Source: a virus. From it: a DNA stretch of 60,585 nt. The stretch spans positions 1 to 60,585 of IMG/VR virus record IMGVR_UViG_3300034069_001005, one strand, 5' to 3'. Positions 25,294 to 45,129 of the stretch are shown in pieces. The notes under the pieces were generated by a model. The model was not told the DNA's origin. It saw only the letters and a list, made by a program, of their open reading frames with translations, and searched no databases. Position 1 is the stretch's first letter. Every line of letters starts with the position of its first letter. The translations under genes and the position numbers were made by a program.

Positions 25294-25310
25294 ATAACCG
25301 CTGCGGTTAT
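25294..25310. promoter_or_regulatory. 17-bp palindrome copy 1 (ATAACCGCTGCGGTTAT) in the divergent early control region
   Basis: Perfect 8+1+8 palindrome. On the minus strand it sits inside TTGCGT-18-TATGGT (25320-25291), upstream of the leftward operon. Confidence 0.7.
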
Positions 25311-25783
25311 GAAAACGCAAACGGCTTCCCGATAATTCGACGGGCTCGCACTTGCCACCGCGTCGCGGCTCGGCCTACAAACACGAACCCCGCCCCGAGC
25401 GCGAAGCATCGAGGCGGGGTCAATGTCGGTGATCGTCCTTGGCCGGACCACGATCCCCGATACGCGGTGAAGCGCGGGCAAACTGTGCCCGCAACTCCCC
25501 CAGATTGCAAGGTCCGCCGGCCGTCATTCGGCTCCAAAGCGTAACCGCGGCGGAGCTCGCCCGAAGGGGACGGCAACGCGCGGGGATCGAGAGACCTACG
25601 GTGCGCTTCGGGGAAACTGAGGTTGAGGGTGCCGAGAGGTCTCCGTCTTCTGTCCCATGCCCGGCTCGGTCGGAATGGCAGCGGCGTTCGATTCCCCCTC
25701 CTTCTAGGACTCTGTCCTGGGGGGTAAGGGGGGATCTTCGCCTTCGAACCCTACCCTCTCAATCGGAATTTCAGGGAAACCCC

Positions 25784-26017
25784 ATGAGGATGAACAACAA
25801 GAGCGCGCGACTGATCGTGAACCGGATGCTGGTCGAGCAGGGCTGGTCCGCGATCTCCGCCGACCTGGATTATCAGGCATTCGCGGGGCGTCTTAGATCC
25901 ATCACGGCCAGGAAATCGGCGCAGGCAGAGTTCGTCGAGCGCTCAGACGCGGTGGCCTATATCCGGCTCGTCGCGCAAGGGGCGGTCAAGATCCCGCAAT
26001 TGGCCGGGCTACCGTAA
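25784..26017 (+). CDS. Hypothetical protein, 77 aa (first gene of the rightward early operon)
   Basis: In-frame ATG of track ORF 25439..26017 with an AGGGAAA RBS-like element. Acceptable GC3. Confidence 0.5.
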   Translation: MRMNNKSARLIVNRMLVEQGWSAISADLDYQAFAGRLRSITARKSAQAEFVERSDAVAYIRLVAQGAVKIPQLAGLP

Positions 26018-26030
26018 CCGGAATGGTTAT
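26014..26030. promoter_or_regulatory. Palindrome copy 2 (GTAACCGGAATGGTTAT, degenerate)
   Basis: Intergenic, 30 bp upstream of the TTG start at 26060. Confidence 0.5.
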
Positions 26031-26059
26031 GGCAGAATCCGGGAACGGAGGATGAACCC

Positions 26060-26479
26060 TTGACCGCCTACAGCTTCGCCCCGCAATTCGTCGCGCCGAT
26101 CCAGGCCGGCACCAAACGCCAGACGATCCGAGCTCACGGCCGGCGCTCCCACGTCAAGCCGGGCGGCCTGATCCAGCTCTACACGGGGATGCGGACCAAG
26201 TCCTGCCGCAAGATCCGGGACGACGTCGTGTGCTTGCGGCTCCTGCCCGTGACGTTCGATCTCACGGGCGTGGCCAGCCTCAAGGGAGCGCCGCTTCCCG
26301 GCGCCGTCGAGCACGCCCGCCTGCATGTCGACCGCATGTGGTGCGGCCAGGGCTGGGAGGAGGAGTTCGCACGCCGCGACGGGTTTGACAGCTTCGCCGA
26401 GATGGTGGCTTTCTGGATCAAGGCGCACGGCACGATTCGTTTCGAGGGCGTCTGCATCCAATGGGGCGAGCCGGGATAG
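26060..26479 (+). CDS. ASCH (PUA-like) domain protein
   Basis: 139 aa, TTG start with an ACGGAGGA RBS. FAPQFVAPIQAGTKRQTIR...LYTGMR... resembles the ASCH domain N-terminal beta-barrel signature. Confidence 0.65.
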   Translation: MTAYSFAPQFVAPIQAGTKRQTIRAHGRRSHVKPGGLIQLYTGMRTKSCRKIRDDVVCLRLLPVTFDLTGVASLKGAPLPGAVEHARLHVDRMWCGQGWEEEFARRDGFDSFAEMVAFWIKAHGTIRFEGVCIQWGEPG

Positions 26480-26520
26480 GCCCCCAGCCGGATCATCTTC
26501 ACCGAAACGCTTGTGCGGGC

Positions 26521-26537
26521 GTAACCGCTGCGGTTAT
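26521..26537. promoter_or_regulatory. Palindrome copy 3 (GTAACCGCTGCGGTTAT)
   Basis: Sits inside TTGTGC-18-TATGGT (26511-26540, +), 10 bp upstream of ATG 26547. Confidence 0.65.
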
Positions 26538-26546
26538 GGTGATCCC

Positions 26547-26891
26547 ATGCAAATGCTCGAGTGGCTGACCAAAAATCATATGTCGATCAGCGAGGTGGCG
26601 CGCCACTTCGGCGTCGCCCCCATCACGCTGCACCGGAACGTGACCGGCGCGCGGTGGCCGTCCGCGGAGATCATGGTCAGCTGCTATCGGCTCACCAATC
26701 GGCAAGTCGACCTCGTCGACTGGATCGAGACGTGCCGTGACCTCCTCCTGGAGGCCGGCGTCATTCAACCCGGAGATCAATATGGTGGGCCGAAAGAAAG
26801 CAACGGAGACGCCGAAGCCGGAGCCGGAGGTGGCGAAGGCCATGAGCACGCGGGGGACGGGCCGCAAAGCGTCGGAGACGCCGAAGCCTGA
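26547..26891 (+). CDS. Helix-turn-helix DNA-binding protein (regulator candidate)
   Basis: 114 aa. MSISEVARHFGVAPITLHRNVTG is a classic HTH. The last ~35 aa overlap the next gene and look out of frame. Confidence 0.55.
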   Translation: MQMLEWLTKNHMSISEVARHFGVAPITLHRNVTGARWPSAEIMVSCYRLTNRQVDLVDWIETCRDLLLEAGVIQPGDQYGGPKESNGDAEAGAGGGEGHEHAGDGPQSVGDAEA

Positions 26892-27507
26892 TCTCAAGCT
26901 GGTCAGCGGCGCCGGCAAGAATAGCACCTTGAGCGACGTCGAGCAGCAGGCGCTATTCTTCCAGCACAAGAAGAAGTACGAGGTCGCACTTTCGGCCAAG
27001 AAGCTGGCGGACGCGGCGTTGCTCAATGTCGGCAAGCTGGCCAAAGCGGAGCTCGGTGAGCATGCCGTGGCCGACATCAAGGAGTCCCTCAAGCTCGGAT
27101 CGCCCGAGGGCCAGGCCGATCTCAAGGAGCGCATGGAGCGCCAGTATCGCGTCGCGCGGTGGATGGGCATGCCGCTCGGATCGCAATCCGATCTGTTCGG
27201 GCCCGATCGGCGCACCGGAGGCGAGATCGCCCACAGCCTCGGTTTCGAGCACGGGTCGGCGGGCGAGAGCCGCAAGCTCCCGGATCGCTATGCCGCGTCG
27301 TCCCCGGAGGGCCAGGCCTACTTCAAGGGCTGGGACCAGGGCCAGGAGGCCATCTTCAACATCAAGGAGAAGAAGGGCGACGACCTCCTGCGGCCCATCG
27401 CCGACGCGAAGCCCGGGCCGATCCCGCGGACGCCCGAGCCGGATGGTGATGACGGTGACGACGAGAGCGGCGACGCCGAAGAAGGCGACGACACCTCGGT
27501 GCATTGA
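26782..27507 (+). CDS. Hypothetical protein, 241 aa, with acidic C-terminus
   Basis: ATG with a GGAGA RBS. Lys-rich N-terminus, a helical core, and a DGDDGDDESGDAEEGDD tail. Confidence 0.6.
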   Translation: MVGRKKATETPKPEPEVAKAMSTRGTGRKASETPKPDLKLVSGAGKNSTLSDVEQQALFFQHKKKYEVALSAKKLADAALLNVGKLAKAELGEHAVADIKESLKLGSPEGQADLKERMERQYRVARWMGMPLGSQSDLFGPDRRTGGEIAHSLGFEHGSAGESRKLPDRYAASSPEGQAYFKGWDQGQEAIFNIKEKKGDDLLRPIADAKPGPIPRTPEPDGDDGDDESGDAEEGDDTSVH

Positions 27508-27510
27508 TCC

Positions 27511-27747
27511 ATGACGCTGTTCTCCCCGCGCTGTGTGGAGTGTGGGGATCCGGGCGTCTACGGGCAGGGGTGCTCGATCCTCAAGGGTATAAACGGCACC
27601 TGGTGGTGCCTCGATTGCGTGCCGGCCTGGTATCTCCGGGAGCTCCGGGCGCACGATGAAGGGGAAGCACATGCCGATCCGGCCGGAGCGCAAGGCGCTC
27701 TACCCGAAAGACTGGCCAGCGATCAGCCGGCAGATCCGAGCGCGTGA
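27511..27747 (+). CDS. Small Cys-rich protein (zinc-ribbon-like), 78 aa
   Basis: CVECGD...WWCLDCVP. The 3' end overlaps the HNH gene start. Confidence 0.4.
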   Translation: MTLFSPRCVECGDPGVYGQGCSILKGINGTWWCLDCVPAWYLRELRAHDEGEAHADPAGAQGALPERLASDQPADPSA

Positions 27748-27994
27748 GGGGAACCGCTGCGGCGGTTCCCCGGTCTATCCGAACTGCCGGGCCGCCAATG
27801 GCGAGCCGCATCCGGTGACCGGCAGCAAGGTGGTGCTGACGGTCGCCCACCTCGATCACGACGAGACCAGCGCCGATCCGGCCAACCTGCGCGCCATGTG
27901 CCAGCGGTGTCATCTCCGATACGATCGGGAGCATCATGCCGAGACGCGCCGCGCTCGGCGCGCCGCCGCTTCGGGCCAGGAGGCCATGCTGTGA
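27671..27994 (+). CDS. HNH endonuclease (paralogue 1)
   Basis: MPIRPERKALYPKDW...VAHLDHDETSADPANLRAMCQRCHLRYDREHH. GAAGGGGAAG RBS. An alternative ATG lies at 27656. Confidence 0.75.
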   Translation: MPIRPERKALYPKDWPAISRQIRAREGNRCGGSPVYPNCRAANGEPHPVTGSKVVLTVAHLDHDETSADPANLRAMCQRCHLRYDREHHAETRRARRAAASGQEAML

Positions 27995-28626
27995 AAGTCC
28001 TCGCATTCGACCAGGCCACGAGCCTGACCGGCTGGGCGGCCGGCAGCAATCGGACGGAGCGGGGCGGCTTCGACTTCGGCTCCATCCGCGTCCCGAAGCG
28101 CGAGGCCTTCGGCGAGCGCCTGGCCTACCTCCACGGGACGATCGCCAAGCTGATCGAGCGATACCAGCCGGACATGCTGGCGTTCGAGGAGCCGTTCTTC
28201 CCCGTCGCGCGGCATGACGCGGTGAGCGCCCGCGCGCCAGGCGGCCGATCCTTTCTGCCACCCGAGGCGGAGCCGGAGGCCGCGGGTGGCCGCGGGGCGT
28301 CGTTCAACGCCGAGACCGTCAAGCAGCTGCAGATGGTCAAGGGGACGATCATCACCCTGGCCGCGCTCTACAGCATCCCGGCCGAGGGCTATGCCTCCTC
28401 GCAATGGCGCGTGACGCTCCTCGGCTACGGCCGGCCGCCGAAAGGCTCCCCGCCGACGTTCGATTTCAAGCGCGAGGCTAGGAAGCGCGTCCAGGCGCTC
28501 GGCTATGATGTCGACGTGGACGACCAGGCCGAGGCGATCGGCATCCTGATGCACGCGCTCCATGGGCCCCAGGCGGCGGCCCGCGCGCAGGGCGATCTTC
28601 TGTCGATGATCGGCGGCAAGCGATGA
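27991..28626 (+). CDS. RuvC-like Holliday junction resolvase
   Basis: GTG start overlapping the HNH stop (GTGA), with an AGGAGG RBS. The acidic catalytic pattern is VLAFDQATS, LAFEEPFF, DDQAEAIGI. Confidence 0.7.
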   Translation: MKVLAFDQATSLTGWAAGSNRTERGGFDFGSIRVPKREAFGERLAYLHGTIAKLIERYQPDMLAFEEPFFPVARHDAVSARAPGGRSFLPPEAEPEAAGGRGASFNAETVKQLQMVKGTIITLAALYSIPAEGYASSQWRVTLLGYGRPPKGSPPTFDFKREARKRVQALGYDVDVDDQAEAIGILMHALHGPQAAARAQGDLLSMIGGKR

Positions 28627-29612
28627 TCGGCGATCCCTTCTTCATCAGCGGCCCGGCCATCATCAGTTTCAGCGGCGGTCGGACCTCGGCGCTCATGTTG
28701 CGGCGGATCCTCGACGCTCATGGCGGCCAGCTGCCGGCCGATGTCCATGTCGCGTTCGCCAACACGGGCAAGGAGCGCCCCGAAACGCTGCGGTTCGTCC
28801 ACGAGTGCGAGGCGCGCTGGGGTGTCCGCATCCATTGGCTTGAGTGGCGCGCCACGCCTAGCCGCGCGGCGGGAACGGCGTCTCTGGCGTCGTGGCTCAC
28901 CGAGAACGATCCAGAACGTCGCATGGTCGCGGACGCCGGGTTCGAGGAGGTCGGGTTCAATTCGGCGTCACGTCACGGCGAGCCGTTCGCGGCCCTGATC
29001 GCCATGAAACAGCGTCTACCCAACTGGCAGGAGCGATGGTGCACCGAGTTCCTGAAGGTGTGGGTCCTCACCGCTTTCGCGGCCGCCCATGGATGGGCGC
29101 CAGGCTCATATCTGGAAGTGATCGGCCTCCGCGATGATGAGCAGCACCGCATCCTTCGCGCGATGTCCAATGCCGAGTTCCGATGGGATCGTAAGCTGAA
29201 ACACGAGGTCCCCAGGGATCCACCCCGCCGCGTTTTCTTTCCGCTCCAGCGCGCCGGCATCAGGAAGGTTGATGTCCTGACCTTCTGGCTAGGCCCCACG
29301 GAGAACACGGACGCCGGGCATATGCCCCAGGGCTTCGACCTCGGCCTGCGCCCCCACGAGGGGAATTGCGATTGGTGCTTCATGAAAGGCCGCGCGCTGC
29401 GCAAGCGGATCGCGCGCGATGCCCCTTGGGTTCCTGGCTGGTGGGCGCAGCAGGAAGCCGTGGGGGGCCGGTGGTTCGATCGGCGCGACCACGCAAGCGC
29501 GCTGATTGAGGAGGTGCGGCGCGCGCCCGAGCTCTTCGATGCGCCCGATGAGGACGACGAGTTCGACGGGGAATGCGGCACGCATTGCGCGCCGATGGAG
29601 GAGGGCCGGTGA
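28623..29612 (+). CDS. PAPS-reductase-like PP-loop ATPase family protein
   Basis: 329 aa with an SFSGGRTS PP-loop (SGGxDS-like). It also has a C-terminal Cys cluster (NCDWCFMKG...ECGTHC). Confidence 0.75.
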   Translation: MIGDPFFISGPAIISFSGGRTSALMLRRILDAHGGQLPADVHVAFANTGKERPETLRFVHECEARWGVRIHWLEWRATPSRAAGTASLASWLTENDPERRMVADAGFEEVGFNSASRHGEPFAALIAMKQRLPNWQERWCTEFLKVWVLTAFAAAHGWAPGSYLEVIGLRDDEQHRILRAMSNAEFRWDRKLKHEVPRDPPRRVFFPLQRAGIRKVDVLTFWLGPTENTDAGHMPQGFDLGLRPHEGNCDWCFMKGRALRKRIARDAPWVPGWWAQQEAVGGRWFDRRDHASALIEEVRRAPELFDAPDEDDEFDGECGTHCAPMEEGR

Positions 29613-32755: not shown

Positions 32756-32918
32756 GCTGCGCGCGCCTTCCCACTCACCCCGCCGTGGGTCACAGCCTGG
32801 TGGTCGTTGCCCGTCGAGGCTCAGAACCGACGCCGGGAAGGCCTTGCATCGGACGTCAACGGGCAAAAGCTGACACCGGCCCTCGGATCTCGATCCGGGG
32901 GCCGCGTCGTTCTTGACC

Positions 32919-32935
32919 ATAACCGCAGCGGTGCT
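32919..32935. promoter_or_regulatory. Palindrome copy 4 (ATAACCGCAGCGGTGCT, right arm degenerate) inside TTGACC-16-TACTGT
   Basis: A sigma70-like promoter at 32913-32940 (+) with no CDS downstream before the terminator at 33131. Confidence 0.55.
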
Positions 32936-33130
32936 ACTGTGCCGCTCGGCGTCCACACGCGCCGCCGGGCCCGCGTCGCTTTTCCCCGAGGGTGACGCGG
33001 ACCCGATCATGCCGGGGCCATTCTGACCCACAAGGCCGCGCCCGACCACAAATCGGCCGCGGGGAATGTCCCCGGCTCCAATTTCCAGCATTCGTCGAGC
33101 CGGGCCAGCTGCCACGGCTCCGAATAGAGC

Positions 33131-33174
33131 GCCGCCCCCGATGTCTGGCCAAACGGCCTCGGGGGCGGCGTTTT
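33131..33174 (+). terminator. Rho-independent terminator (GCCGCCCCCG...CGGGGGCGGC + GTTTT)
   Basis: 10-bp GC arms with an inner GGCC-AAAC-GGCC hairpin and a U-tract. It abuts the stop of minus-strand gene 33178..33699. Confidence 0.65.
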
Positions 33175-36029: not shown

Positions 36030-36046
36030 ATAACCGCTGCGGTTAT
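36030..36046. promoter_or_regulatory. Palindrome copy 5 (ATAACCGCTGCGGTTAT, identical to copy 1) in a divergent promoter region
   Basis: Lies between 35979(-) and 36082(+). The minus-strand architecture TTGCTC-gc-palindrome with -10 TATGTT was read directly. Confidence 0.7.
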
Positions 36047-36081: not shown

Positions 36082-36705
36082 ATGCGGGTCCCCGTCCAGA
36101 TCGAAATGCTCCAGCAGGGCCAGGTGCTCAAACGGTTTGAAAACCAGATCGCCGCGCTGGGCGACACCCGAGCGCGCATCGCCATGTCACGCGCGATCAA
36201 TCGCGCCACCAGGACCACCTACACCGCGGTGACGCGGGCCCTCCAGATGCAGACCAGCGCGCCCCGGGCGGTGATCCGCCGGGAGGTCGGCATGACGCTA
36301 TCGGCCCAGCAGGGTGCGGGCGCCTTGCAGGGCGTGATCTGGTCTCACGGCAAGGAGCTCCCGCTGTCGGTTTTCAATCCGAGCCAGTTCAGCTACGGCG
36401 TCCGCGCCAAGGTGTGGGGCCGCATGCAGCGGTTCGAGCATGCGTTCATCTTCAAGGGCTCATGGCGGACAGGCGATCCCATCGCGCAGGGCTCCGGAGG
36501 GGCGCACGTCTTCATCCGCAACGGCCGCTTCACCGGCAATAAGGCCAAGGGCGAGAACCGAAACAACGGCTTCGCGGAGATGTTCGGGCCCAGCCTGCCG
36601 AAGGAGATGGTCAAGGACGCTACCCTGGCCGCGTTCCACAAGGTGGCCAGGCAACAGCTGGAGGCGCGCCTACAGCACGAGCTCGGGCGCATGCTCGGGG
36701 TTTGA
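36082..36705 (+). CDS. Lambda gpZ-like minor tail / tail-completion protein (putative)
   Basis: 207 aa. AMSRAINRATRTTYTAVTRAL...ELPLSVF...HAFIF...HVFIRNG...LPKEM follows the conserved spacing of the Minor_tail_Z family. Confidence 0.5.
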   Translation: MRVPVQIEMLQQGQVLKRFENQIAALGDTRARIAMSRAINRATRTTYTAVTRALQMQTSAPRAVIRREVGMTLSAQQGAGALQGVIWSHGKELPLSVFNPSQFSYGVRAKVWGRMQRFEHAFIFKGSWRTGDPIAQGSGGAHVFIRNGRFTGNKAKGENRNNGFAEMFGPSLPKEMVKDATLAAFHKVARQQLEARLQHELGRMLGV

Positions 36706-36739
36706 CGGCGGTCTGAGAAAGCCTACAGTCCGGGTCTCC

Positions 36740-36756
36740 ATAACCGATCCGGATAT
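36740..36756. promoter_or_regulatory. Palindrome copy 6 (ATAACCGATCCGGATAT)
   Basis: 6 bp upstream of ATG 36762. The terminal TAT begins TATGAT. Confidence 0.5.
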
Positions 36757-37457: not shown

Positions 37458-37491
37458 TCGAACCCCCGGACTTAGATCCAGAGGAATAGGC

Positions 37492-37587: not shown

Positions 37588-37950
37588 ATGAAACGCTATC
37601 GAGTCGGCGATAACGGGATGTGGGCCATGAATGAGAACATAGAAGGAACGCGGGAGGATCGAGACCTTGCCCTCGACCTCAAGCGGTTCTTGGATCTCGG
37701 CCAGAATGAGAAGTCCATTGCTAGGCTGCACGGCATCCCTCTGGCCCGCGTCAAAGCACTGTTGAAGCTGGTCGACGATCCCAAACGCCCCGTCCGTAAA
37801 GAGGGCACGCCCGAGCCCGCCTCTTGGAACGCCGCTCTGCGCAAGGCAAAGCAGATCATCCGCGAGATCGACATGGCATCCAATCTCCGCACGGGCCACG
37901 ACGTCGCGCTACTCGCCGCTAAGCGTATTGATCAGGAAATGATGCGCTGA
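37588..37950 (+). CDS. HTH-containing small protein, low-GC gene (regulator candidate)
   Basis: 120 aa. NEKSIARLHGIPLARVKALL is HTH-like. GC3 is clearly lower than the genome norm. It is preceded by everted half-sites GGTTAT/ATAACGG. Confidence 0.5.
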   Translation: MKRYRVGDNGMWAMNENIEGTREDRDLALDLKRFLDLGQNEKSIARLHGIPLARVKALLKLVDDPKRPVRKEGTPEPASWNAALRKAKQIIREIDMASNLRTGHDVALLAAKRIDQEMMR

Positions 37951-37984
37951 TGTTTGCGGCCTCGCCGGTTTGGGGCTTGCTTCC

Positions 37985-38001
37985 GTAACCGGCGCGGTTA
38001 T
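37985..38001. promoter_or_regulatory. Palindrome copy 7 (GTAACCGGCGCGGTTAT) inside TTGCTT-16-TATATT
   Basis: The best sigma70-like promoter of the family (37977-38004, +). It lies upstream of the 48-aa ORF and the ParB-like gene. Confidence 0.7.
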
Positions 38002-38054
38002 ATTTCATCTCGTGAGGCGGTTCTAACAGCCCGCTCCGCACGGAGATCGAGATC

Positions 38055-38201
38055 GTGACCTACTTCATCACCGCCCACGTCAACGCCCGCACCCTGGTGA
38101 TCGTCAGCGAAAGCCGCACCACGGACGCCGCAGTGGCCGACATCATCGCCGCGCACCTCAAGGCCCAGGGCCACCACGTCACGCGCCGCCAGGAAGGGTG
38201 A
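38055..38201 (+). CDS. Small protein, 48 aa (below the ORF-track cut-off)
   Basis: GTG start with a GGAGA RBS 8 nt upstream. (M)TYFITAHVNARTLVIVSESRTTDAAVADIIAAHLKAQGHHVTRRQEG. High GC3. Confidence 0.4.
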   Translation: MTYFITAHVNARTLVIVSESRTTDAAVADIIAAHLKAQGHHVTRRQEG

Positions 38202-38269
38202 GCCCATCTGCATGCCGGCGCGCGCCGCCGGCATTCACGCGGGCTTTTCCGTCAACCGAGAGCGATGCC

Positions 38270-39244
38270 ATGAACGCCCAGATCGACCTGGAGGACGACG
38301 TCCTCGACCAGGACACCACCGCCGCCTCCCCGAAGAAGAAGCCGCAGGGCGGCCTCAAGGACATCGCGCTCGGCAAGTCCGACGTGTTCAAGGTCGACCC
38401 GCGCAAGATCCGCGTGAAGGAAGGCTGGAACAGCCGCGATCCCAACGACCCCAGCAACGCCGAGCACATCGACCAGCTGGCCATGTCGATCGCCGAATAT
38501 GGCGTGCAGACGCCCCTGACGATCTTCTGGGAAAACGACGCCCCCGTGGTGGTCGACGGCCATTGCCGCCTAGCGGCCACCATGCTGGCCATCAGCCGCG
38601 GCACGGACGTGGTCTCCGTGCCCTGCATCGTGACGCCGCGCCACCACAATGAGGTGGACCGGATCTTCGCCCAGATCGTCAAGAACATGGGCAAGAAGCT
38701 CGAGCCCATCGAGGCGGCCCGGGTCTACAAGCGCCTGCTCGACCTCGGCGCCGACGAGAAGACGATCGCGGCCAAGTCCGGCATCACGGTGCATCGGCTC
38801 CAGGAGCTCATCCGCCTCCAGGCGGCGCCCTGGAAGGTGACCGACATGGTCACCCGCAAGAAGATCTCGGCCGACCTGGCATCCAAGACGATCCGCGCCC
38901 ACAAGGGCGACGCCGAGGCGGCCACCTCCACCCTGGAGACCGCCGTGGCCAAGGCCGAGGCCGAGGGGCGCTCCAAGGCCACCCTCAAGGATCTCGCACC
39001 GATCCCCGATCGTCAGATGGACATCCTGGCCGACGCCGCGGCGGAGCGCGACGCGAACCAGGTGCAGCAGCCGGCCGGCCGCCATCCGGCATGGATCCAG
39101 GGCATGAAGGATGCGGCCGAGCTCATCCTGGGCGCCGCGATCGGCGATGATGACCTCCGCCTCCAGCTGGTGGCCATGATCGAGGAGCGGGCTGGCCTCA
39201 AGGCCGCGGAGACCACCGAGGCCCCAGAGGCCGACGCGGCCTGA
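38270..39244 (+). CDS. parB: ParB/KorB-family DNA-binding protein
   Basis: 324 aa from an in-frame ATG. ParB N-domain (VDPRKIRV...NSRD...VVVDGHCRLAA) and HTH (LEPIEAARVYKRLLDLGADEKTIAAKSGITVHRLQELIRL). No ParA nearby. Confidence 0.75.
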   Translation: MNAQIDLEDDVLDQDTTAASPKKKPQGGLKDIALGKSDVFKVDPRKIRVKEGWNSRDPNDPSNAEHIDQLAMSIAEYGVQTPLTIFWENDAPVVVDGHCRLAATMLAISRGTDVVSVPCIVTPRHHNEVDRIFAQIVKNMGKKLEPIEAARVYKRLLDLGADEKTIAAKSGITVHRLQELIRLQAAPWKVTDMVTRKKISADLASKTIRAHKGDAEAATSTLETAVAKAEAEGRSKATLKDLAPIPDRQMDILADAAAERDANQVQQPAGRHPAWIQGMKDAAELILGAAIGDDDLRLQLVAMIEERAGLKAAETTEAPEADAA

Positions 39245-39253
39245 ACCCACAAT

Positions 39254-39280
39254 GCCGCCCCCGCGCTGATCGGGGGCGGC
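39254..39280 (+). other. Perfect 10-bp GC hairpin (GCCGCCCCCG-N7-CGGGGGCGGC) after the parB-like gene
   Basis: The arms are the same as in the terminator at 33131. There is no U-tract. Confidence 0.5.
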
Positions 39281-39363
39281 GGGCCAAAGTGACAACCCCG
39301 TGCGATGCTGCTCGATCTGGGCCGGAAACGACCGCCCAGATTTTGCATTTCGGGGGTCAGAAT

Positions 39364-39693: not shown

Positions 39694-40319
39694 GGCGAGG
39701 CCCAATCCGTTCCGGAATACACACGGGGCGGTGGGCCGCACCAGAGGCGGGCGCCACCTGGTCCCCACCTGGCCTGGTCACCGAATGCAGGGGGGCCAAT
39801 AGCTCACCCTCTCGCCGGGTGATCCCTGCGGGGTGATCCCCGCGCGCCTGGTGCCGCGGCCTATGTGCACGCGCCCGGCGCCGCGCCCCACCACCAGGGC
39901 CGCACCCACCGACCCCCCACCCCCATGCCCTGGCCCGATCCATCCGAGAATGCGGACTCGTGGCCTGCCTCGCCGCATGTCCTGCGCCCCCTGCGCGTGT
40001 GCCCCTCTGTGCGGGCCACACACAGGCCTGCGCTCCACCACGTAGCGGGCACCACGCCAACGCCACGAGCCCGCACACCGGCCCTCTCGCAGGCCCTGTC
40101 GACCGCACCGCGACCAGGCGCGCCCACCCCCCGAGGCCCGCGCGAGGCGGAGGCCCCCCACCCCCGGGGGGGTCTAGGGACCGTAAGGATCGGCAGACGT
40201 CATGCGCAGACGCAGCAGCCCGAGATTCGGCTGTGTTTCCATTTTCCGCATTTCCATGTCGCGTCGCGGGAGGGGCTTGTCGCCACGCGGGCGCGCGAGC
40301 CATATGGATCGGCCACGGC

Positions 40320-40336
40320 ATAACCGCGGCGGTTAC
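40320..40336. promoter_or_regulatory. Palindrome copy 8 (ATAACCGCGGCGGTTAC)
   Basis: 21 bp upstream of ATG 40357, at the end of the C-rich non-coding region. Confidence 0.6.
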
Positions 40337-40356
40337 GAAACGGGGAGACAGCACAC

Positions 40357-40599
40357 ATGGGACAGCCAAAGGTCGGAGGGTGGTTTCTCCACCTCGGCGG
40401 GGAGCCGGTCGAGCTCGACAGCGTCCAGATCCCGGAGGTCCAGGGCGATGATCTGGGCACGCTCACGCTGGAGGCCATCCCGCCGATCCGCATCGAGCTA
40501 CGCGGGCCGGCTCGCCCGTTGTCGCCGCTCCAGCGGATCCAGCGCCCCAGCCGGGCGGGCTTCCTGTCCTCGGCATGCTTCAACAGGAGGGTCGGATGA
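40357..40599 (+). CDS. Hypothetical protein, 80 aa
   Basis: GGGGAGA RBS and high GC3 throughout. ATGA overlap with the next gene. Confidence 0.5.
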   Translation: MGQPKVGGWFLHLGGEPVELDSVQIPEVQGDDLGTLTLEAIPPIRIELRGPARPLSPLQRIQRPSRAGFLSSACFNRRVG

Positions 40600-41372: not shown

Positions 41373-41653
41373 CGCCGCACCCCTCGATTCGTCGGATGCA
41401 CAAGCTCCGCGCGGGGATGCGCCGGCTATCCGATGCCCGGTTGGATGCCGCGATCGTGGGCGCCGAGGCGAAGTTCGCCCAGATCAAGCTTCGTGACACT
41501 GGCGACGCGGCCCACCATCTCGCCGTTCTCATCTGGGATTTGAGAGGGGAGCGGTCGGATCGCGCCAATCGCGACAACCCGATTTCGGGCCGACCTGGCC
41601 ATCCCGGCTATGAGCGGTTCCGGGCGATTGCCGAAAGCTGGGGCTACTCGTGA
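41369..41653 (+). CDS. Hypothetical protein, 94 aa
   Basis: ATGA overlap with the previous gene. Confidence 0.5.
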   Translation: MTPHPSIRRMHKLRAGMRRLSDARLDAAIVGAEAKFAQIKLRDTGDAAHHLAVLIWDLRGERSDRANRDNPISGRPGHPGYERFRAIAESWGYS

Positions 41654-41748
41654 GGCCCTCGAGCATTTGACACTGGAGGCCCGAATGGGCGTGATGGGCG
41701 ATGCCCGTCTCGATTCGGGCCAGGAGATTCACTGCCGCCCAGGACGCT

Positions 41749-41817
41749 GAAACGAAAAGACCCCCAGGCTTGCCGGCCCAGGGGTCTCTAAACGGATAGC
41801 TCATCCGATCCACTCGC
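41749..41817 (-). ncRNA. Candidate ~70-nt small RNA (antisense to the 41654-41916 leader)
   Basis: The minus strand has TTGACA (41852-41847), a 17-nt spacer and CATCTT (41829-41824). This is followed by a GC hairpin (41758-41787) and TTTTCGTTT. Confidence 0.2.
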
Positions 41818-41916
41818 AAGGGGAAGATGGGCGAGACACCTTGAGGTGTCAACGGGGAAGTGCCGAGCCCCGATCGCCGTCGTTCGCCCCGAAGCGGCCC
41901 GACAAGGGCCAGACGT

Positions 41917-42621
41917 ATGCAATCCGACCATTTCCGGCGCGCCATAGAGGCGGCGCCACGGGTGAAGCTCATCGAGCTCGCCTCCGCGCTCTGGAAAGCG
42001 CACGCCCTCGGCCATCTGGACGATGCCGAGACACAATGTCTCGCCGAGCTCATCGAGGTCCGGAAGGCGCTGCCGATCCCCCCGAAGCCGGCCCGCCGCA
42101 CGGGCTCCCGGGCCCGATCCCCGGCCAGCGTGGAGCGTCGCCGCCGCTGGGCGGGCTCCGGCTACATGCCGCCGGCCCTGGCGGCCAGGTTTACGACCTC
42201 CGAGCACGCGGTCCTGGCGGTGATCGCCGCCGAAGTGGTCCAGCGCGGCCTCTGCCGCATGCCCCTGGGCCAGATCGCCGCTCTGGCGGGCGTGTGCCGC
42301 ACCACCGTGAAGAACACGCTCCGCGAGGCCCGCGCGATCGGCCTGGTGACGTCCGAGGAATGGCGGATCCAGGCCTTCCGCAATGCGCCGAACACGGTCC
42401 GCATCGTCTCGCCGGAGTGGCGCGCCTGGCTGCGAACCCGCGCCCGCAAGGTGGCCGCCGAGAGCCCGCGGACGGCGGAACAGGGTGGGGGCAAATCTGC
42501 GCCCACCACGAACAACCATCTATTTACCAAGGGAATCGAGGTTGAGAGCGGAGGAGATCGGGGAAGGAAGACGGTTGCCAGCTGGCGACCCGCGGCGCCA
42601 TATGCTCGGGCGATAGCGTAA
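41917..42621 (+). CDS. Winged-helix DNA-binding protein (regulator or replication-initiator candidate)
   Basis: 234 aa from an in-frame ATG. LCRMPLGQIAALAGVCRTTVKNTLREARAIGLV is wHTH-like. Confidence 0.6.
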   Translation: MQSDHFRRAIEAAPRVKLIELASALWKAHALGHLDDAETQCLAELIEVRKALPIPPKPARRTGSRARSPASVERRRRWAGSGYMPPALAARFTTSEHAVLAVIAAEVVQRGLCRMPLGQIAALAGVCRTTVKNTLREARAIGLVTSEEWRIQAFRNAPNTVRIVSPEWRAWLRTRARKVAAESPRTAEQGGGKSAPTTNNHLFTKGIEVESGGDRGRKTVASWRPAAPYARAIA

Positions 42622-42634
42622 CCGCCCCGGTTAT
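42618..42634. promoter_or_regulatory. Palindrome copy 9 (GTAACCGCCCCGGTTAT)
   Basis: Overlaps the stop region of 41917..42621, 20 bp upstream of ATG 42654. Confidence 0.6.
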
Positions 42635-42653
42635 GCCGAGAGAGGCCGAAACG

Positions 42654-43070
42654 ATGCGATCACCCGACGACGCGCGGGCCCAGGACGGGCATCTGCCGCA
42701 AGGGCTCCTGCTGGGGGGCATGAACCGGGCGGACAGGCGGCGGGCCGCGCGCCTGGCCGCTCGAGTCCCCGTGACCGAGCCACAGGCGGCGCCGCAGGCG
42801 AGCCCCGGGATCCTGGAGGCCTCGATGATGCACCGCGAGATGCTCAACGGGATCCGCAAGGTCGAGGGCCCAGACGCGGGGGACCGGAACGCGCTGGCCA
42901 CCATGATCGGCATGTTCGCCTATCTGGTCGACCACCACGGGATCGAGGATGCCGAGGCCAGGATCAAGGGCGCGCTGTCCGACATGGTGAGCCAGGCGCT
43001 GCTCAAGCGGGCCAAGGACATCCAGGCCGGCCGGCGGCCGCCGATGCCGACGGGGGAGGGCACCCGCTGA
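42654..43070 (+). CDS. Hypothetical protein, 138 aa
   Basis: ATG with an AGAGAGG RBS, in frame with track ORF 42633..43070. Confidence 0.5.
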   Translation: MRSPDDARAQDGHLPQGLLLGGMNRADRRRAARLAARVPVTEPQAAPQASPGILEASMMHREMLNGIRKVEGPDAGDRNALATMIGMFAYLVDHHGIEDAEARIKGALSDMVSQALLKRAKDIQAGRRPPMPTGEGTR

Positions 43071-43264
43071 TGGCCGCCTCGCGCAAGGAGCATCCGGCCG
43101 TGAAAGCGGTGCGGGTGGCGCTCAAGGAGCATGGCGACCTAGTCGCGGAGGTCCGGGGGCTCAAGGGGGAGCTGGCACGCGCGAATAGGACATCGGCCGC
43201 GCTCGCGCGGGAGGTCTCGGCGCTCAAGGCGAAGGGCAAGGCGCCCGCGAAGGTGGCAAGATGA
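43070..43264 (+). CDS. Hypothetical coiled-coil protein, 64 aa
   Basis: The start shares a base with the previous TGA. Confidence 0.5.
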   Translation: MAASRKEHPAVKAVRVALKEHGDLVAEVRGLKGELARANRTSAALAREVSALKAKGKAPAKVAR

Positions 43265-43392
43265 TGGGCCAGCAGAGCGGGGCGGTGCCGGCGGGGGGTC
43301 TGGTGTGCTCCCGCTGCGGCAACAGGCGATACGTCGAATGGTGCCCCTATTGCGACAGCGGAGCGGTGCCGGCTGGGACGGAGACGCCTTGA
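43261..43392 (+). CDS. Zinc-ribbon mini-protein, 43 aa (below the ORF-track cut-off)
   Basis: MMGQQSGAVPAGGLVCSRCGNRRYVEWCPYCDSGAVPAGTETP (CxxC-N8-CxxC). ATGA overlap upstream and TGATG junction downstream. Confidence 0.4.
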   Translation: MMGQQSGAVPAGGLVCSRCGNRRYVEWCPYCDSGAVPAGTETP

Positions 43393-43772
43393 TGCGCGGC
43401 CACGCTCTCATCCCCCTGTCGGTCGCGCCGCATCCGGACGGCGGGTGGACCTTTCGCATCGAAGACACCCCCGCCGGCCGGCGCCTGGCCGAGGATCTGA
43501 TGCACACGACCTATGGCGGCGCGGCGCTCCTGGTGGTGCCTCACATCGCGGGCGCGCGCGATGCTCTGGAGCCGGTGGGCGAGTGGCCGGACCCATTCGT
43601 GGGCCCAGGCTGCGCATCATGCAGCGGGCGAGCTTTCGTCGCCGTCGAGGTGGAGGGCGGGTTCGGAGACGCGCCGTGCCAGTCCTGCGACGAGGGCCGT
43701 GCGCTGGCCGCGCGCTACGGCCAAAGTCGACGGCGGCGGGCCTCTGGTGGCGATCTCCGCCCCGCGTTATGA
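43392..43772 (+). CDS. Hypothetical Cys-containing protein, 126 aa
   Basis: In-frame ATG of track ORF 43305..43772, translationally coupled. Motif CASCSG...CQSC. Confidence 0.5.
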   Translation: MRGHALIPLSVAPHPDGGWTFRIEDTPAGRRLAEDLMHTTYGGAALLVVPHIAGARDALEPVGEWPDPFVGPGCASCSGRAFVAVEVEGGFGDAPCQSCDEGRALAARYGQSRRRRASGGDLRPAL

Positions 43773-43827
43773 TGCAGGACCAGGGGCGGGGGAGTCGTCG
43801 TTCCAGACCCCGCCCATTTGCCTTCGC

Positions 43828-43841
43828 GTAACCACCGTTAT
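43828..43841. promoter_or_regulatory. Palindrome copy 10 (GTAACCACCGTTAT, spacer 3 bp shorter) inside TTTGCC-16-TATGGA
   Basis: Intergenic. It would direct + strand transcription antisense to the HNH gene 43926..44354. Confidence 0.45.
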
Positions 43842-43925
43842 GGAACTTCGGCGTCATTTCGGCGACCCCGCCAGAATGATGGCCAGGGCCCCCGGAAAAG
43901 CCCGCCAGGCGGCATCGGCCGCTGA

Positions 43926-44354
43926 TCAGGCCGGGTATGGGCCCTCGAACAGGTCCCCGGCGGCGCGGCGCCCCAAGATCGTCAGCCGGCGCCGCCGCGC
44001 ATGCTCCTCCCGATCGTTGATCAGGTGACATCGCTGGCACAGGGCGGCCAGGTTGGCCGGATCGTTGTGGGTCGGGTCGTGATCGAGGTGGGCCGTGGCC
44101 AGGACCACCCATGTCCGCCGCAGTCGCACGGCGATCTCCGACGGATCCGGCGCCACGATCGCGCGGCCGGCATCATCGCGCCAGGTCCGCGCATCCTCAT
44201 CCCACCAGCGGCCGTCCCCGAGATGGCGCACCAGGCGCCCGTGCGGCCGGCCGCAATCCTCGCATCGGCCTCGGGCTCGGAGGAATCGGACGGCGGCCGA
44301 GACCTCCCGCCAGTCGGTGGGATAGAGCCGGCGATGGGCGGGGCGGATTGGCAT
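43926..44354 (-). CDS. HNH endonuclease (paralogue 2)
   Basis: MPIRPAHRRLYPTDW...ATAHLDHDPTHNDPANLAALCQRCHLINDREEH. It shares its motifs with 27671..27994 but has a ~35-aa insertion. Confidence 0.75.
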   Translation of the reverse strand: MPIRPAHRRLYPTDWREVSAAVRFLRARGRCEDCGRPHGRLVRHLGDGRWWDEDARTWRDDAGRAIVAPDPSEIAVRLRRTWVVLATAHLDHDPTHNDPANLAALCQRCHLINDREEHARRRRLTILGRRAAGDLFEGPYPA

Positions 44355-44445
44355 GACCGAATCATGCACCCCCGCGAGTCCGGCCGCCAACGAAAAAGGG
44401 CGGCCAGCCGGCCGCCCTTCCGACTGTTGCAGAAATTGCAACAGT

Positions 44446-45120
44446 TCAGGCTTCGCCCTGCTCCTTGGCCTGGTAGACGATCCCGTCGGCGGTGCTCCGG
44501 CTGGTGATGCGCGCGATGGCGTCGCGCTCGAACCGGCGGACGTGGCTCATCACGTCATGGATTCCGGTCGTCAGGCGGAGCTCCTGCTCGGTCGCGCCCT
44601 CCTTGAGCTTGTGCCACAGGGTGGCAATCTCGCCCGAGAAGACGTGGCCCGTCTTCGTGGTCGCGGTCGGCGTGACGGCCGGCGCCGGAACGCCCGGGTC
44701 AGTCTCGTCGATCGCCCCGACCGAGGCGGGGCCCGGGGCGGGCGCGACAGGCTGGGCGGCCAGGTCCGCCATCGGCACGCCGAGGTAGGTGTCAGCGGCC
44801 GGCGCGGTAGCCGACGCCGGCAGGGTCCCGCTGATCTCGGCCGCGGCGGCCTGGCCCTTCTCGGCCTCGACGATCTCGGCGTGCTTGACCTCATCCTGGG
44901 CCGCGGCCGCCATGGCGCGGGTGGTGTCCTCGGTGCTGGCCTTGGCCAGGTCGATCGAGCCCGGCACCGCCTCGATCGGCTTCGGCTGCTCGACGACCGT
45001 TTCCGCGCCGGCCGGCGACGGGGAGGCGCCCGCATTGCCCAGCGGCGCGGCCAGGGCGGTCTCGGTAGCCTGGCTTCCGACGTTCCCGGCCGGCGCCTTA
45101 TCGTTCGTCTTCGTAACCAT
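44446..45120 (-). CDS. Hypothetical protein, 224 aa (Ala/Pro-rich N-half, folded C-domain)
   Basis: The ATG lies in the centre of palindrome copy 11. AGGAG RBS 10 nt upstream. Confidence 0.55.
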   Translation of the reverse strand: MVTKTNDKAPAGNVGSQATETALAAPLGNAGASPSPAGAETVVEQPKPIEAVPGSIDLAKASTEDTTRAMAAAAQDEVKHAEIVEAEKGQAAAAEISGTLPASATAPAADTYLGVPMADLAAQPVAPAPGPASVGAIDETDPGVPAPAVTPTATTKTGHVFSGEIATLWHKLKEGATEQELRLTTGIHDVMSHVRRFERDAIARITSRSTADGIVYQAKEQGEA

Positions 45121-45129
45121 GGCGGTTAA
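45113..45129. promoter_or_regulatory. Palindrome copy 11 (GTAACCATGGCGGTTAA) at the head of the late block
   Basis: On the + strand, TTCGTC-17-TAAACT. It overlaps the start codon of 44446..45120(-) and lies 73 bp upstream of ATG 45202. Confidence 0.6.

Follow-up and report, generated by a model that had tools for sequence, protein, structure and literature searches.

The palindrome c-RTAACC-N5-GGTTAY-g, which recurs in the early region of the genome analysed here, is probably the operator of a dimeric helix-turn-helix (HTH) repressor encoded by the phage itself, and, judging from the sequence, the best candidate for this repressor is the product of 26547-26891, a protein of the Cro/C1 type. 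Its most likely function would be a Cro-like shut-off of early transcription. The window, i.e., the whole 60,585-nucleotide stretch that was analysed, is the complete circular genome (60.4 kb) of a newly seen alphaproteobacterial myophage, and the ten full palindrome sites span 25.3-45.1 kb of it (Table 1). The palindrome is a real feature, yet it belongs to an ordinary kind of phage gene control.

Table 1. Operators (O1-O10), associated promoters and genes, and imperfect matches in the window
Feature	Coordinates	Strand	Sequence	Position and neighbours
O1	25294..25310	-	ATAACCGCTGCGGTTAT	Spacer of leftward early promoter
O1 promoter	-35 25320-25315; -10 25296-25291	-	TTGCGT; TATGGT	Minus-strand start 25231 lies 62 nt downstream of O1 and heads recombination/exonuclease operon (25231 to 18563)
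Weak match	25541..25557	.	GTAACCGCGGCGGAGCT	11.2 bits; left arm intact, right arm lost
O2	26014..26030	+	GTAACCGGAATGGTTAT	Between small gene 25790-26017 (stop overlapped) and gene 26060-26479
O3	26521-26537	+	GTAACCGCTGCGGTTAT	At about -26..-10
O3 promoter	26511..26540	+	TTGTGC-18-TATGGT
Candidate regulator gene	26547..26891	+		114-aa protein; Cro/C1-type (XRE) HTH
O4	32919-32935	+	ATAACCGCAGCGGTGCT	Fills spacer
O4 promoter	32913..32940	+	TTGACC-16-TACTGT
O5	36030..36046	-	ATAACCGCTGCGGTTAT	Spacer of leftward promoter
O5 promoter	-35 36054-36049; -10 36032-36027	-	TTGCTC; TATGTT	Targets DUF932 operon (35979/35665 to 33178); plus-strand gene 36082 starts 35 nt from O5
O6	36740..36756	+	ATAACCGATCCGGATAT	About +5..+21; ends 5 nt before ATG 36762
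O6 promoter	36702-36729	+	TTGACG-16-TACAGT	Operator begins 10 nt past -10
O7	37985-38001	+	GTAACCGGCGCGGTTAT	At -26..-10
O7 promoter	37977..38004	+	TTGCTT-16-TATATT	Targets downstream small gene 38055-38201 and ParB-like gene
ParB-like protein	38270..39244	+		HTH_ParB, phrog_1033; behind O7 promoter
O8	40320-40336	+	ATAACCGCGGCGGTTAC	About +8..+24; ends 20 nt before ATG 40357
O8 promoter	40277-40306	+	TTGTCG-18-CATATG	Operator 13 nt further downstream
O9	42618-42634	+	GTAACCGCCCCGGTTAT	Overlaps stop codon 42621; ends 19 nt before ATG 42654
O9 promoter	42575-42604	+	TTGCCA-18-CATATG	Operator 13 nt further downstream
Short copy	43828..43841	.	GTAACCACCGTTAT	3 bp too short; half-sites out of register
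O10	45113..45129	.	GTAACCATGGCGGTTAA	16.5 bits; covers start codon 45120 of minus-strand gene 44446-45120
Third CATATG promoter	45137-45142; 45161-45166		TTGCGC; CATATG	O10 lies 7 nt upstream of its -35

The initial annotation described a dispersed inverted repeat of the form RTAACCG-N3-CGGTTAY, and ten full 17-bp copies were verified with their coordinates and sequences. Six sites (25294, 26521, 36030, 37985, 40320 and 42618) match the pattern without mismatches, sites 26014 and 36740 deviate from it at one position and sites 32919 and 45113 at two. With up to three mismatches, the pattern has 14 matches, compared to 2.7 +/- 1.6 (largest 6) in 100 dinucleotide-preserving shuffles. A symmetrised position weight matrix separates the ten sites (16.5-29.8 bits) from the next match (11.2 bits), and a check proposed earlier, the comparison of such a scan with dinucleotide shuffles, came out in favour of the motif: ten sites with at least 16 bits are present, while sites with at least 12 bits occur with a mean of 0.35 per genome in 200 shuffles. 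As claimed, all ten full copies are intergenic or at gene ends, within the 17.6% of the genome that is non-coding according to codon-usage gene calls; at three sites, a gene end is overlapped by 4-8 nt (stops 26017 and 42621 and the minus-strand start 45120). The initial annotation also listed imperfect elements, and all of them are present: the short copy 43828-43841, one-arm pieces at 7477, 16189 and 25541, and an everted pair, GGTTAT/ATAACGG. They score at most 11 bits or are unscorable. The short copy is probably a decayed operator or a chance occurrence, the same is possibly true for the 25541 match, and the one-arm pieces and the everted pair may likewise be chance or decayed sites.

The proposed 8+1+8 geometry had to be replaced by arms of 5-6 bp separated by 5 bp, the full palindrome reaching 19 bp. 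In the 16 copies formed by the window sites together with those of a sister contig (L032/L033), the preceding C is present in 16 and the following G in 12; the invariant core is TAACC-N5-GGTTA, with G and C merely preferred at positions 7 and 11. The sister contig, whose HTH and ParB-like proteins are 73% and 67% identical to those of the window over aligned lengths (68% and 72% by BLASTP), has retained the motif in six orthologous intergenic locations, which provides the occurrence in a related phage that the initial annotation had suggested looking for. Overall, the arms of the sister sites are conserved while flanks and central bases drift: O5 retains 17 of 17 bases between flanks that are about 50% identical, and O3 retains its arms with the central five bases changed from GCTGC to ACAAC. 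O2 is found at the same position (L032 159), and the promoter/operator arrangement of O3 is the same (L032 700). The sister O5 promoter, TTGCGA-16-TATGAT, has the geometry seen in the window, and the O7 counterpart is TTGCCA-16-TATATT with GTAACCGCAGTGGTTAT (L033 9937). At O4, the promoter is kept and the palindrome is shifted by 6 bp (TTGACCGCTGCGGTTAT), upstream of a tRNA-Met gene.

Four sites, 25294 (-), 26521 (+), 36030 (-) and 37985 (+), share the arrangement TTGNNN-16/18-TATNNT, in which the palindrome occupies -26..-10 and its TAT starts the -10 element; genome-wide, only 1.3% of TAT triplets are in such a setting (binomial p = 1.3e-5). The fifth site, 32919, has a degenerate right arm and lies in the spacer of a promoter just preceded by a terminator hairpin (32877-32904). 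At three sites (36740, 40320 and 42618), a separate -10 (TACAGT or CATATG) is located 10-13 nt upstream, and sites 40320 and 42618 each follow TTGNCN-18-CATATG by exactly 13 nt; the third CATATG promoter faces packaging and structural genes starting at 45202. Sites 26014 and 45113 match neither placement and are without a clear promoter relationship, no convincing promoter hexamers being present in the flanks of the former. Thus, the idea that the palindrome is built into sigma70-like promoters holds for four to five of the ten sites, with TAT as the -10, and not in this form for the other five, and a single phage-specific promoter family does not agree with the differing placements. What is supported by the sequence is one operator at varying positions on ordinary host-type promoters. 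The promoter hexamers at the sites are weak by E. coli standards, and a generic sigma70 scan returned only two sites in the region, not above shuffles; we infer that the hexamers flanking the sites are promoters.

The candidate regulator consists of an HTH domain (first ~70 residues) and a tail rich in acidic residues and Gly, the coding sequence of which overlaps the next gene. Its gene heads a rightward operon followed by the 26782 gene and genes for HNH, RuvC, PAPS-reductase-like, MT-A70 methylase, primase and DnaB proteins, and its mRNA looks leaderless because the -10 of the O3 promoter ends 6 nt before ATG 26547. The protein itself scores below every Pfam threshold; among 20 family members, 15 match HTH_3, seven match HTH_26 (Cro/C1-type) and seven match YdaS. 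An AlphaFold2 model built with 20 homologues has a pLDDT of 98 for the HTH, and its Foldseek matches include HigA, YdaS, ClgR, Xfaso-1 Cro, DdrO, SinR and 434 repressor (probability about 1, TM 0.55-0.69).

The assignment of the palindrome to this protein is suggested by more distant homologues (40-47% identity), which sit in syntenic early modules of phage contigs, seen in part (20 kb of L058; L061-L064 are contigs of 1-10 kb). Palindromes there keep the CC-N5-GG geometry and the position. In L058, L063 and L064, TTGCC-N5-GGCAA is located about 11 nt before the ATG of the homologue; L058 has a second, inverted copy at a divergent leftward promoter, the two being the sites in its 20 kb. The recognition helix is APITL(H/Q)R in the 26547 protein and its sister homologue and (A/S)(P/V)ST(L/I)SR in the homologues from these three contigs, so that the outer arm bases change together with the helix: TAACC occurs with ITL(H/Q)R and TTGCC with ST(L/I)SR. 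The L064 palindrome was predicted from the helix sequence before its DNA was read, and the predicted palindrome was found. L062 has the variant ATTTCCGCTGCGGCAAT, and in L061 GTRMCC..GGTAC is fused to the -10 at both divergent promoters. In total, the site or a variant is attached directly to the HTH gene promoter in seven of seven contexts examined. Of the regulators considered in the initial annotation, the 26547 HTH is thus the one favoured by co-variation, and the proposal of an operator for one dimeric regulator in sigma70-like early promoters gains support from the sister footprint, the site-promoter geometry and this co-variation taken together.

Alternatively, the palindrome could be the binding site of the ParB-like protein, a KorB-like global regulator that would possibly load at the sites and silence nearby promoters. 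Palindromes of 13-16 bp are the targets of ParB and KorB proteins, and in RK2 some 12 dispersed sites are under the control of KorB (PMC11790492). The window protein has a ParB-type HTH (Pfam HTH_ParB, E = 1.2e-5; phrog_1033, E = 1e-44), O7 precedes its operon, and the window/sister pair cannot separate it from the Cro-type candidate since both are equally conserved where the motif is kept and both are behind operator-bearing promoters. However, in L058, L063 and L064 the palindrome tracks the Cro-type HTH gene and its arms follow the recognition helix of that protein, whereas no recurring palindrome was found within 10 kb on either side of ParB homologues (46-49% identity) in four other phage contigs. 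Moreover, Pfam does not detect the ParBc N-terminal domain in the window protein, and its CTP-binding motif, usually GERRxRA, reads GHCRLAA. Sites that fill the -35/-10 spacer, as they do here, are typical of small steric repressors like KorA and not of KorB, and KorA and KorB have a separate operator each, while the window contains one motif class only. We therefore consider the ParB-like protein, with the KorB analogy drawn initially, an unlikely binder and less likely than the Cro-type HTH.

With a similarly low probability, the binder may be a host transcription factor or a different phage protein (e.g., 37588-37950 or 41860-42621), and the Cro-type gene would then merely be one of its targets. 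Several small proteins in the region are without family assignment, the co-variation of arms and helix comes from only three or four independent lineages, and the binder might, though improbably, be a host factor that differs from host to host. Yet the arms differ (TAACC vs TTGCC) between closely syntenic phages, in step with the phage HTH, the attachment to the Cro-type gene promoter is seen in every context examined, and a literature search with the half-sites and the words "operator" and "repressor" returned no matching regulator. Finally, the post-transcriptional role once suggested is very hard to sustain. In this reading, the palindrome would act on stability, processing or translation as an RNA hairpin located between cistrons or at the 5' ends of mRNAs. 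Transcripts would include three or four of the sites (36740, 40320, 42618 and possibly 26014) at a distance of 5-30 nt from a start codon, and a 6-7 bp stem could form. However, four to five sites are upstream of the predicted transcription start within the promoter spacer, the stems have low predicted stability (-1.4 to -5.6 kcal/mol), neither Rfam matches nor T-tracts are present at the sites, and the sole match of a terminator scan at a site (37985) has three GC pairs. Moreover, single changes without compensation (G.T, A.C, G.A) disrupt positions 7/11 in 6 of 16 copies, whereas the bases of the outer arms are the same in all copies; this pattern points to base-specific protein contacts and not to pairing.

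If the 26547 protein is the repressor, the binding, its repressive effect and its timing may be envisioned as follows. The rightward early operon, with 26547 as its first gene, would be transcribed from a host sigma70-type promoter, the -35/-10 spacer of which is filled by the operator. With increasing amounts of the protein, single operators in two kinds of position would become occupied. At four to five early promoters, the protein bound over -26..-10 would block RNA polymerase binding, affecting the leftward recombination operon, the operon of the repressor itself, the DUF932 and ParB-like operons and, at 32.9 kb, a small non-coding unit, while the protein bound 10-13 nt past the -10 (36.7, 40.3 and 42.6 kb) would block initiation or promoter escape. 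The outcome would be negative autoregulation and a coordinated turn-down of the entire early region (18.5-45 kb). No operator is present inside or downstream of a promoter of the packaging, head, tail and lysis genes, which extend from 45.2 kb across the circle junction to 18.5 kb.

Metagenome contig L044 provides a comparison with a classical switch. There, a homologue with 30% identity takes the place of cro in a divergent cI(XRE+S24)/cro switch. Between cI and cro lie three operators of the AACC-N5-GGTT type, one of them exact and the others with one mismatch each, at intervals of 23 bp, and two further ones are located 3 kb away; since CI would share these operators, L044 gives no preference to the Cro-like protein. 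No cI-type repressor or homologue was found anywhere in the window genome, and no integrase was found among the 40 ORFs (most of the total) searched in PHROGs. The circuit described here therefore looks like a "Cro-only" temporal switch and not like a lysis/lysogeny switch.

Allowing up to three mismatches, the palindrome RTAACCG-N3-CGGTTAY is matched 14 times in the window, compared with 2.7 ± 1.6 times in shuffled sequences. A symmetrised position weight matrix separates its ten full copies (operators O1-O10; 16.5-29.8 bits) from everything else in the genome, which scores at most 11.2 bits, while shuffled genomes contain 0.35 sites of at least 12 bits. All ten copies are found within 25.3-45.1 kb and in the non-coding 17.6% of the genome, as delimited by a self-trained codon-usage gene call, with three of them overlapping a gene end by 4-8 nt; none is present among the 34 kb of structural and lysis genes. 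The initial annotation, which described a recurrent motif located between genes or at their ends, was thus correct on both points. When the copies from the window and from the sister contig (L032/L033, a close relative) are considered together, the palindrome extends to 19 bp, with a preceding C in 16 of 16 copies and a following G in 12 of 16. There is essentially no variation at T2, A3, A4, C5 and C6, G7 and C11 are preferred but not fixed, and the three central bases are free. The operator can be written as TAACC-N5-GGTTA, a two-fold symmetric sequence with arm centres 10 bp apart.

A literature search with the half-site strings revealed no matching regulator. The consensus sequences of CtrA, LexA and DnaA boxes differ from TAACC-N5-GGTTA and these candidates were rejected since none of them fits; a restriction or methylation target was rejected because the sites are confined to promoters. 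The exact motif is present in 31 IMG/VR contigs, once in each, and these contigs are mostly low in GC and unrelated; tblastn of the candidate regulators against them found nothing, and the matches were treated as due to chance. An unrelated IMG/VR contig with 63% GC (L029) contains two pairs of GTAACC-N5-GGTTAC at 3804-3867 and 7327-7377, 34-47 bp apart. None of its proteins is homologous to the candidate regulators of the window, and its sites may reflect convergent use of the same operator sequence.

Operator copies in the window and their placement relative to putative promoters
Operator	Start	Class	Strand	Placement
O1	25294	A	-	toward recombination operon
O2	26014			no convincing promoter nearby
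O3	26521	A	+	toward HTH gene
O4	32919			in spacer of near-consensus TTGACC-16-TACTGT, right after strong terminator hairpin
O5	36030	A	-	toward DUF932 operon
O6	36740	B		10 nt after TTGACG-16-TACAGT
O7	37985	A	+	toward ParB-like operon
O8	40320	B		exactly 13 nt after TTGNCN-18-CATATG (40277-40306)
O9	42618	B		exactly 13 nt after TTGNCN-18-CATATG (42575-42604)
O10	45113			just upstream of -35 of third CATATG promoter (45137-45166); covers start codon of divergent gene 44446-45120

The four class A sites share one geometry, TTGNNN-16/18-TATNNT, in which the final three bases of the palindrome are the first three of the -10 hexamer and the operator spans approximately -26 to -10. Such a partner is found for five of the 386 TAT triplets of the genome, and four of these five are at palindrome ends; 4 of the 12 palindrome ends that read TAT have it (p = 1.3e-5). 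The three corresponding sites of the sister contig have the same geometry. It was initially proposed that the terminal TAT of the palindrome, in its better copies, serves as the start of a -10 element within a single phage-specific promoter family. The first part of this proposal stands for about half of the sites, including the four of class A, but not for O6, O8 and O9, which lie downstream of a separate -10, or for O2. The second part had to be abandoned, as the unifying feature is the operator and not one promoter design. The hexamers themselves are putative promoters recognized by sequence; they predict transcript starts close to 25284 (-), 26547 (+, leaderless), 32947 (+), 36020 (-), 36736, 38011, 40313, 42611 and 45173 (the last five all +). 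A generic scan for E. coli-type sigma70 promoters was uninformative at 68% GC. Activation of the MerR type from the spacer was rejected because the spacers are 16-18 bp long, not 19-20.

The form TTGNCN-18-CATATG is common to three places, the third of which faces the packaging genes and has no operator downstream. The hexamer CATATG occurs eight times in the genome, four times inside gene calls (one of these being the promoter copy at 42599) and four times outside. This hexamer is palindromic and does not end in the T that is conserved in -10 elements, and promoters of this type may therefore need an extra factor or form a distinct middle or late class. In the sister contig (L032 7998-8173), the putative promoter TTGACC-16-TACTGT drives a tRNA-Met gene. 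In the window (32913-33172, +), the same promoter is followed by ~230 nt devoid of an ORF or tRNA, up to a strong bidirectional terminator at 33137-33172, and an sRNA or a transcript antisense to the convergent operon may be produced here. A conserved non-coding block separates the leftward early promoter from the HTH operon (window ~25575-25775, +; ~9700-9900 in L058 and ~3200-3440 in L061, both contigs with distant homologues of the HTH protein); strings common to it include CCTACGGTGC, GGGAAACTGAGG, TCTGTCCCA and CTTCGAACCC. No Rfam family matches this block, and RNAalifold on the three sequences gave a weak, unconvincing consensus (-14.9 kcal/mol, 11 pairs with double changes); a structured RNA or an origin of replication may lie here.

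The candidate regulators have one close relative each among 5.8 billion proteins, and both relatives are encoded on one 14.3-kb Logan contig, the sister contig. The recurrence of the motif in a related genome, suggested as a check in the initial annotation, was observed there at six intergenic positions orthologous to O2-O7. The O5 site is the same in 17 of 17 bases although its flanks have diverged (the alignment is 75% identical overall). The O3 counterpart retains the arms but has ACAAC in place of the central GCTGC, while the O6 and O4 sites are shifted by 6-20 bp relative to nearby landmarks, yet are still there. Kept arms with a free centre are what one would expect at a site bound by a protein that contacts specific bases in the arms.

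The protein most likely to bind this site is the 114-aa product of the gene starting at 26547, to which O3 belongs. Its ORF begins 6 nt past the -10 of the O3 promoter and has no Shine-Dalgarno sequence, as in the sister contig, so that the mRNA appears to be leaderless; O3 occupies positions -26 to -10 of this promoter, and the same arrangement is found in six homologue contexts. A word-indexed search with the protein returned the sister protein only, while an exhaustive HMMER search revealed 28 distant homologues with a common N-terminus, M-Q/K-L-x-D/E-W/Y-L. The AlphaFold2 model built with a 20-sequence alignment has a pLDDT of 98 and five to six helices, and its best PDB matches in Foldseek are HigA, YdaS, ClgR, Xfaso-1 Cro, DdrO, SinR and 434 repressor; it supersedes a first model from a 2-sequence alignment (pLDDT 66), which gave meaningless Foldseek matches. 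The window protein on its own is below Pfam thresholds, and among 20 family members HTH_3 is detected in 15 and Cro/C1-type HTH_26 in seven. The 26547 protein is thus a small single-domain protein with the Cro/C1-type (XRE) HTH fold, with a symmetric operator at its own promoter whose half-sites are ~10 bp apart.

Genomic contexts were examined for five distant homologues (L058, L061, L062, L063 and L064). Four of them (all except L062) are syntenic with the early module of the window (HTH, homologue of the 26782 product, RuvC; 35-67% identity), and in the longer contigs, L058 and L061, synteny extends via the methylase to DnaB. L058, L063 and L064 carry TTGCC-N5-GGCAA 11 nt before the ATG of the HTH gene, in a cassette composed of TTGCNN, 4-5 nt, the palindrome and CGTCG, and L058 has a second, inverted copy at the divergent leftward promoter. 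In L061, both divergent promoters have GTRMCC..GGTAC joined to a TACTTT -10, and the L062 site reads ATTTCCGCTGCGGCAAT. The invariant part in every context is CC-N5-GG at fixed spacing, attached to the promoter of the HTH gene, which makes the 26547 protein the best candidate. Moreover, the arms change together with the recognition helix: TAACC arms go with APITL(H/Q)R and TTGCC arms with (A/S)(P/V)ST(L/I)SR. For the homologue P0080, TTGCC was predicted from the helix ahead of reading the DNA and was found there. Another homologue, P0079, should bind TTTGCCGCTGGGGCAAC and not the window operator, with the reverse being true for the window protein. Of the regulators listed in the initial annotation, the 26547 protein is the best supported, since the palindrome tracks the promoters of its homologues and the arms co-vary with the helix; this makes it the candidate for the protein that binds the operator and represses.

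A more distant relative, 30% identical, is found in the cro position (5332-5556) of a metagenome contig (L044, VFQT010000508.1). The cI gene of this contig (XRE+S24, minus strand, start 5248) is divergent from the cro-like gene, and three operators of the AACC-N5-GGTT type are located between the two genes, 23 bp apart (5307, exact; 5261 and 5284, one mismatch each; span 5261-5320), with two further operators 3 kb away (2015-2060, 32 bp apart). Judging by this layout, the region is a textbook lambdoid immunity region. L044 also has a second paired palindrome, TGCTTGC-N4-GCAAGCA, at 2125 and 2157.

Alternatively, the palindrome may be bound by the ParB-like product of 38270-39244, which is as conserved in the sister contig as the HTH protein and is encoded behind O7. 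We consider this unlikely: no recurrent palindrome was found within 10 kb on either side of the ParB homologues in four contigs of unrelated phages (L034-L037; 46-49% identity), and Pfam detects no ParBc domain in the window protein, a ParB-like HTH protein in which the position of the GERR motif reads GHCR, while a single recurrent palindrome class is present in the window. The window encodes two distinct ParB-family proteins. In the 38270-39244 product, the ParB HTH alone is detectable and GHCRLAA is at the place of the CTP-binding GERRxRA, and 45202-45798 encodes a protein with a ParB-like nuclease domain directly upstream of the packaging genes, as in L039, L041, L045 and L049.

Less probable still, and very doubtful in our opinion, are two readings that give the regulator a wider role. 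The Cro-type and ParB-like proteins might act as a KorA-KorB-like pair, with the operator-bound small HTH protein capturing or positioning the ParB-family protein for genome-wide silencing of early genes. In a related possibility, the same regulator represses early promoters and activates the late packaging and structural operon from O10, which is centred at about -52 of the CATATG promoter at 45161. If either were true, the timing of gene expression in a virulent phage would be controlled by one protein alone. Finally, a role of the motif as an RNA hairpin, also raised initially, is disfavoured by the location of half of the sites within a promoter spacer, by weak predicted stems (-1.4 to -5.6 kcal/mol), by uncompensated disruption of the inner pair in 6 of 16 copies, and by the absence of a T-tract or an Rfam match at any of the sites. 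The preferred reading remains that of a DNA operator bound by the Cro-type protein.

The 26547 protein would operate in a phage whose genome is complete: an exact direct repeat of 141 bp at the ends of the window (1-141 = 60445-60585) implies that the contig is circularly closed, with a genome of ~60.4 kb, and a tail gene at 59819 runs on across the circle junction. The G+C content is 68%. By gene content the phage is a myophage (portal, head protease, tail sheath, baseplate, tail fibres, endolysin, holin), and the early region (18.5-45 kb) encodes exonucleases, an AAA ATPase, RuvC, an MT-A70 methylase, primase, DnaB, a DUF932 protein and the ParB-like protein. Neither an integrase nor a cI-type repressor was found among the ORFs searched. 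Megablast of the 25-45 kb region against 50,697 deposited phages produced no matches, and the closest relatives of the portal and ParB proteins (35-47% identity) belong to phages of Alphaproteobacteria. Scans of GTDB genomes with the HTH protein and with the 36082 protein returned no matches, which leaves no prophage relative and no host assignment; a viral-contig scan with the ParB-like protein alone and a metagenome scan with the HTH protein were also empty, and a metagenome scan with the 36082 protein revealed 18 loci, with the HTH homologue present in L044 only. An Rfam suhB/mmgR match (RF00519; 54.5 bits against a gathering score of 41, E = 1.8e-8) is located at 16211-16285 (+), with the lysis genes on one side, the tail-fibre gene 16340-18577 on the other and a single CGGTTATGG half-site ~16 nt upstream; a phage-borne copy of a regulatory sRNA of this alphaproteobacterial host family (mmgR) points to an alphaproteobacterial host. 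Homologues of the 36082-36705 gene (phrog_27, neck/tail-completion) in L039, L041, L042, L044 and L045 directly precede the ParB-nuclease and terminase genes. An intervening stretch of ~9 kb, made up of early-type genes with operators O6-O10, keeps them apart in the window and the sister contig, which suggests insertion of this stretch at the beginning of the late operon.

Host RNA polymerase would transcribe the early units from sigma70-type promoters, and the Cro-type protein would be made at once from its leaderless message. Its dimer would occupy the single operators, occluding the -10 and spacer at class A promoters and blocking initiation or escape at promoters with a downstream operator. 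In this way the protein would limit its own synthesis and turn down the entire early region. The operon that runs from 45.2 kb across the circle junction to 18.5 kb would escape repression because its promoter, although also of the CATATG type, has no operator downstream. A role in lysogeny maintenance is unlikely, as RuvC, primase and DnaB share a transcription unit with the regulator and the ORFs searched include no cI or integrase.

The regulon is real and tidy. The phage lineage it belongs to is poorly sampled and nearly devoid of sequenced relatives, with one close sister contig in public data. The regulon provides a testable regulatory map of about ten predicted early promoters with a common operator and a named candidate repressor, while the current understanding of phage regulation is unchanged by these findings. 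The homologues form a natural specificity series (TAACC with ITL(H/Q)R, TTGCC with ST(L/I)SR, and AACCA in the lambdoid relative) which could be useful for studying or engineering the specificity with which Cro-type proteins bind DNA. They also bear on circuit evolution, as the same Cro-type protein and operator geometry are found in a cI/cro switch (L044) and in a cI-less phage, where single copies of the operator have spread over many promoters.

Regulation through many dispersed sites (10-30 per system, stoperators included) at or near transcription-unit starts is also characteristic of the C1 operators of phage P1 and the conserved inverted repeats of phiC31. The window resembles these systems in having one regulator with sites dispersed in this manner. 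The P1 C1 operators, however, are asymmetric, unlike the window site. The stoperators of Cluster A mycobacteriophages are likewise numerous dispersed sites of one phage regulator (PMC9283540, PMC6550527), but they are asymmetric, 13-14 bp long, orientation-dependent and bound by a monomeric two-domain repressor (PMC9283540). They stop elongation, whereas the window site is symmetric, lies mostly inside core promoters and has a single-domain XRE HTH protein as its candidate regulator. In all three systems the regulators are lysogeny repressors of temperate phages; the candidate regulator of the window shares a transcription unit with replication genes, and no module for lysogeny was detected. 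KorA of the IncP-1 plasmid RK2 is a small HTH dimer whose palindromic operator covers the -10 of several dispersed promoters, including its own, with the ParB-family KorB encoded nearby (PMC11790492). The resemblance to the KorA/KorB regulon pointed out in the initial annotation holds for KorA, as the window has dispersed single sites over core promoters, including that of the candidate regulator itself, and a ParB-family protein encoded nearby. As to differences, the window is a phage and not a plasmid, its ParB-like protein is without a detectable ParBc domain, and a single operator class was found, where KorA and the CTP-dependent clamp KorB each have their own.

The closest parallel is with lambdoid Cro/CI (lambda, P22, 434; YdaS of the Rac and CP-933P prophages), although there are clear differences. 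The window has no cI partner (the L044 CI has no homologue there, best tblastn E = 1.6), no tandem OR1-3 or OL arrays, no detected integrase and no lambdoid bistable switch; the cro-like gene and the gene preceding it are on one strand, all sites are single and are distributed over about ten separate promoters in 20 kb, and the cro-like mRNA is apparently leaderless. The likeness lies in a small all-alpha Cro/C1-type HTH protein, in an operator of ~17 bp that has two-fold symmetry and half-sites separated by one helical turn, in the overlap of this operator with the core promoter of its own early operon, which implies negative autoregulation and early-gene turn-down, and in the distant homologue that is part of a divergent cI/cro switch with three operators 23 bp apart. 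Judged by its predicted fold, the symmetry of its operator and its probable autoregulation, the 26547 protein would work like lambdoid Cro.
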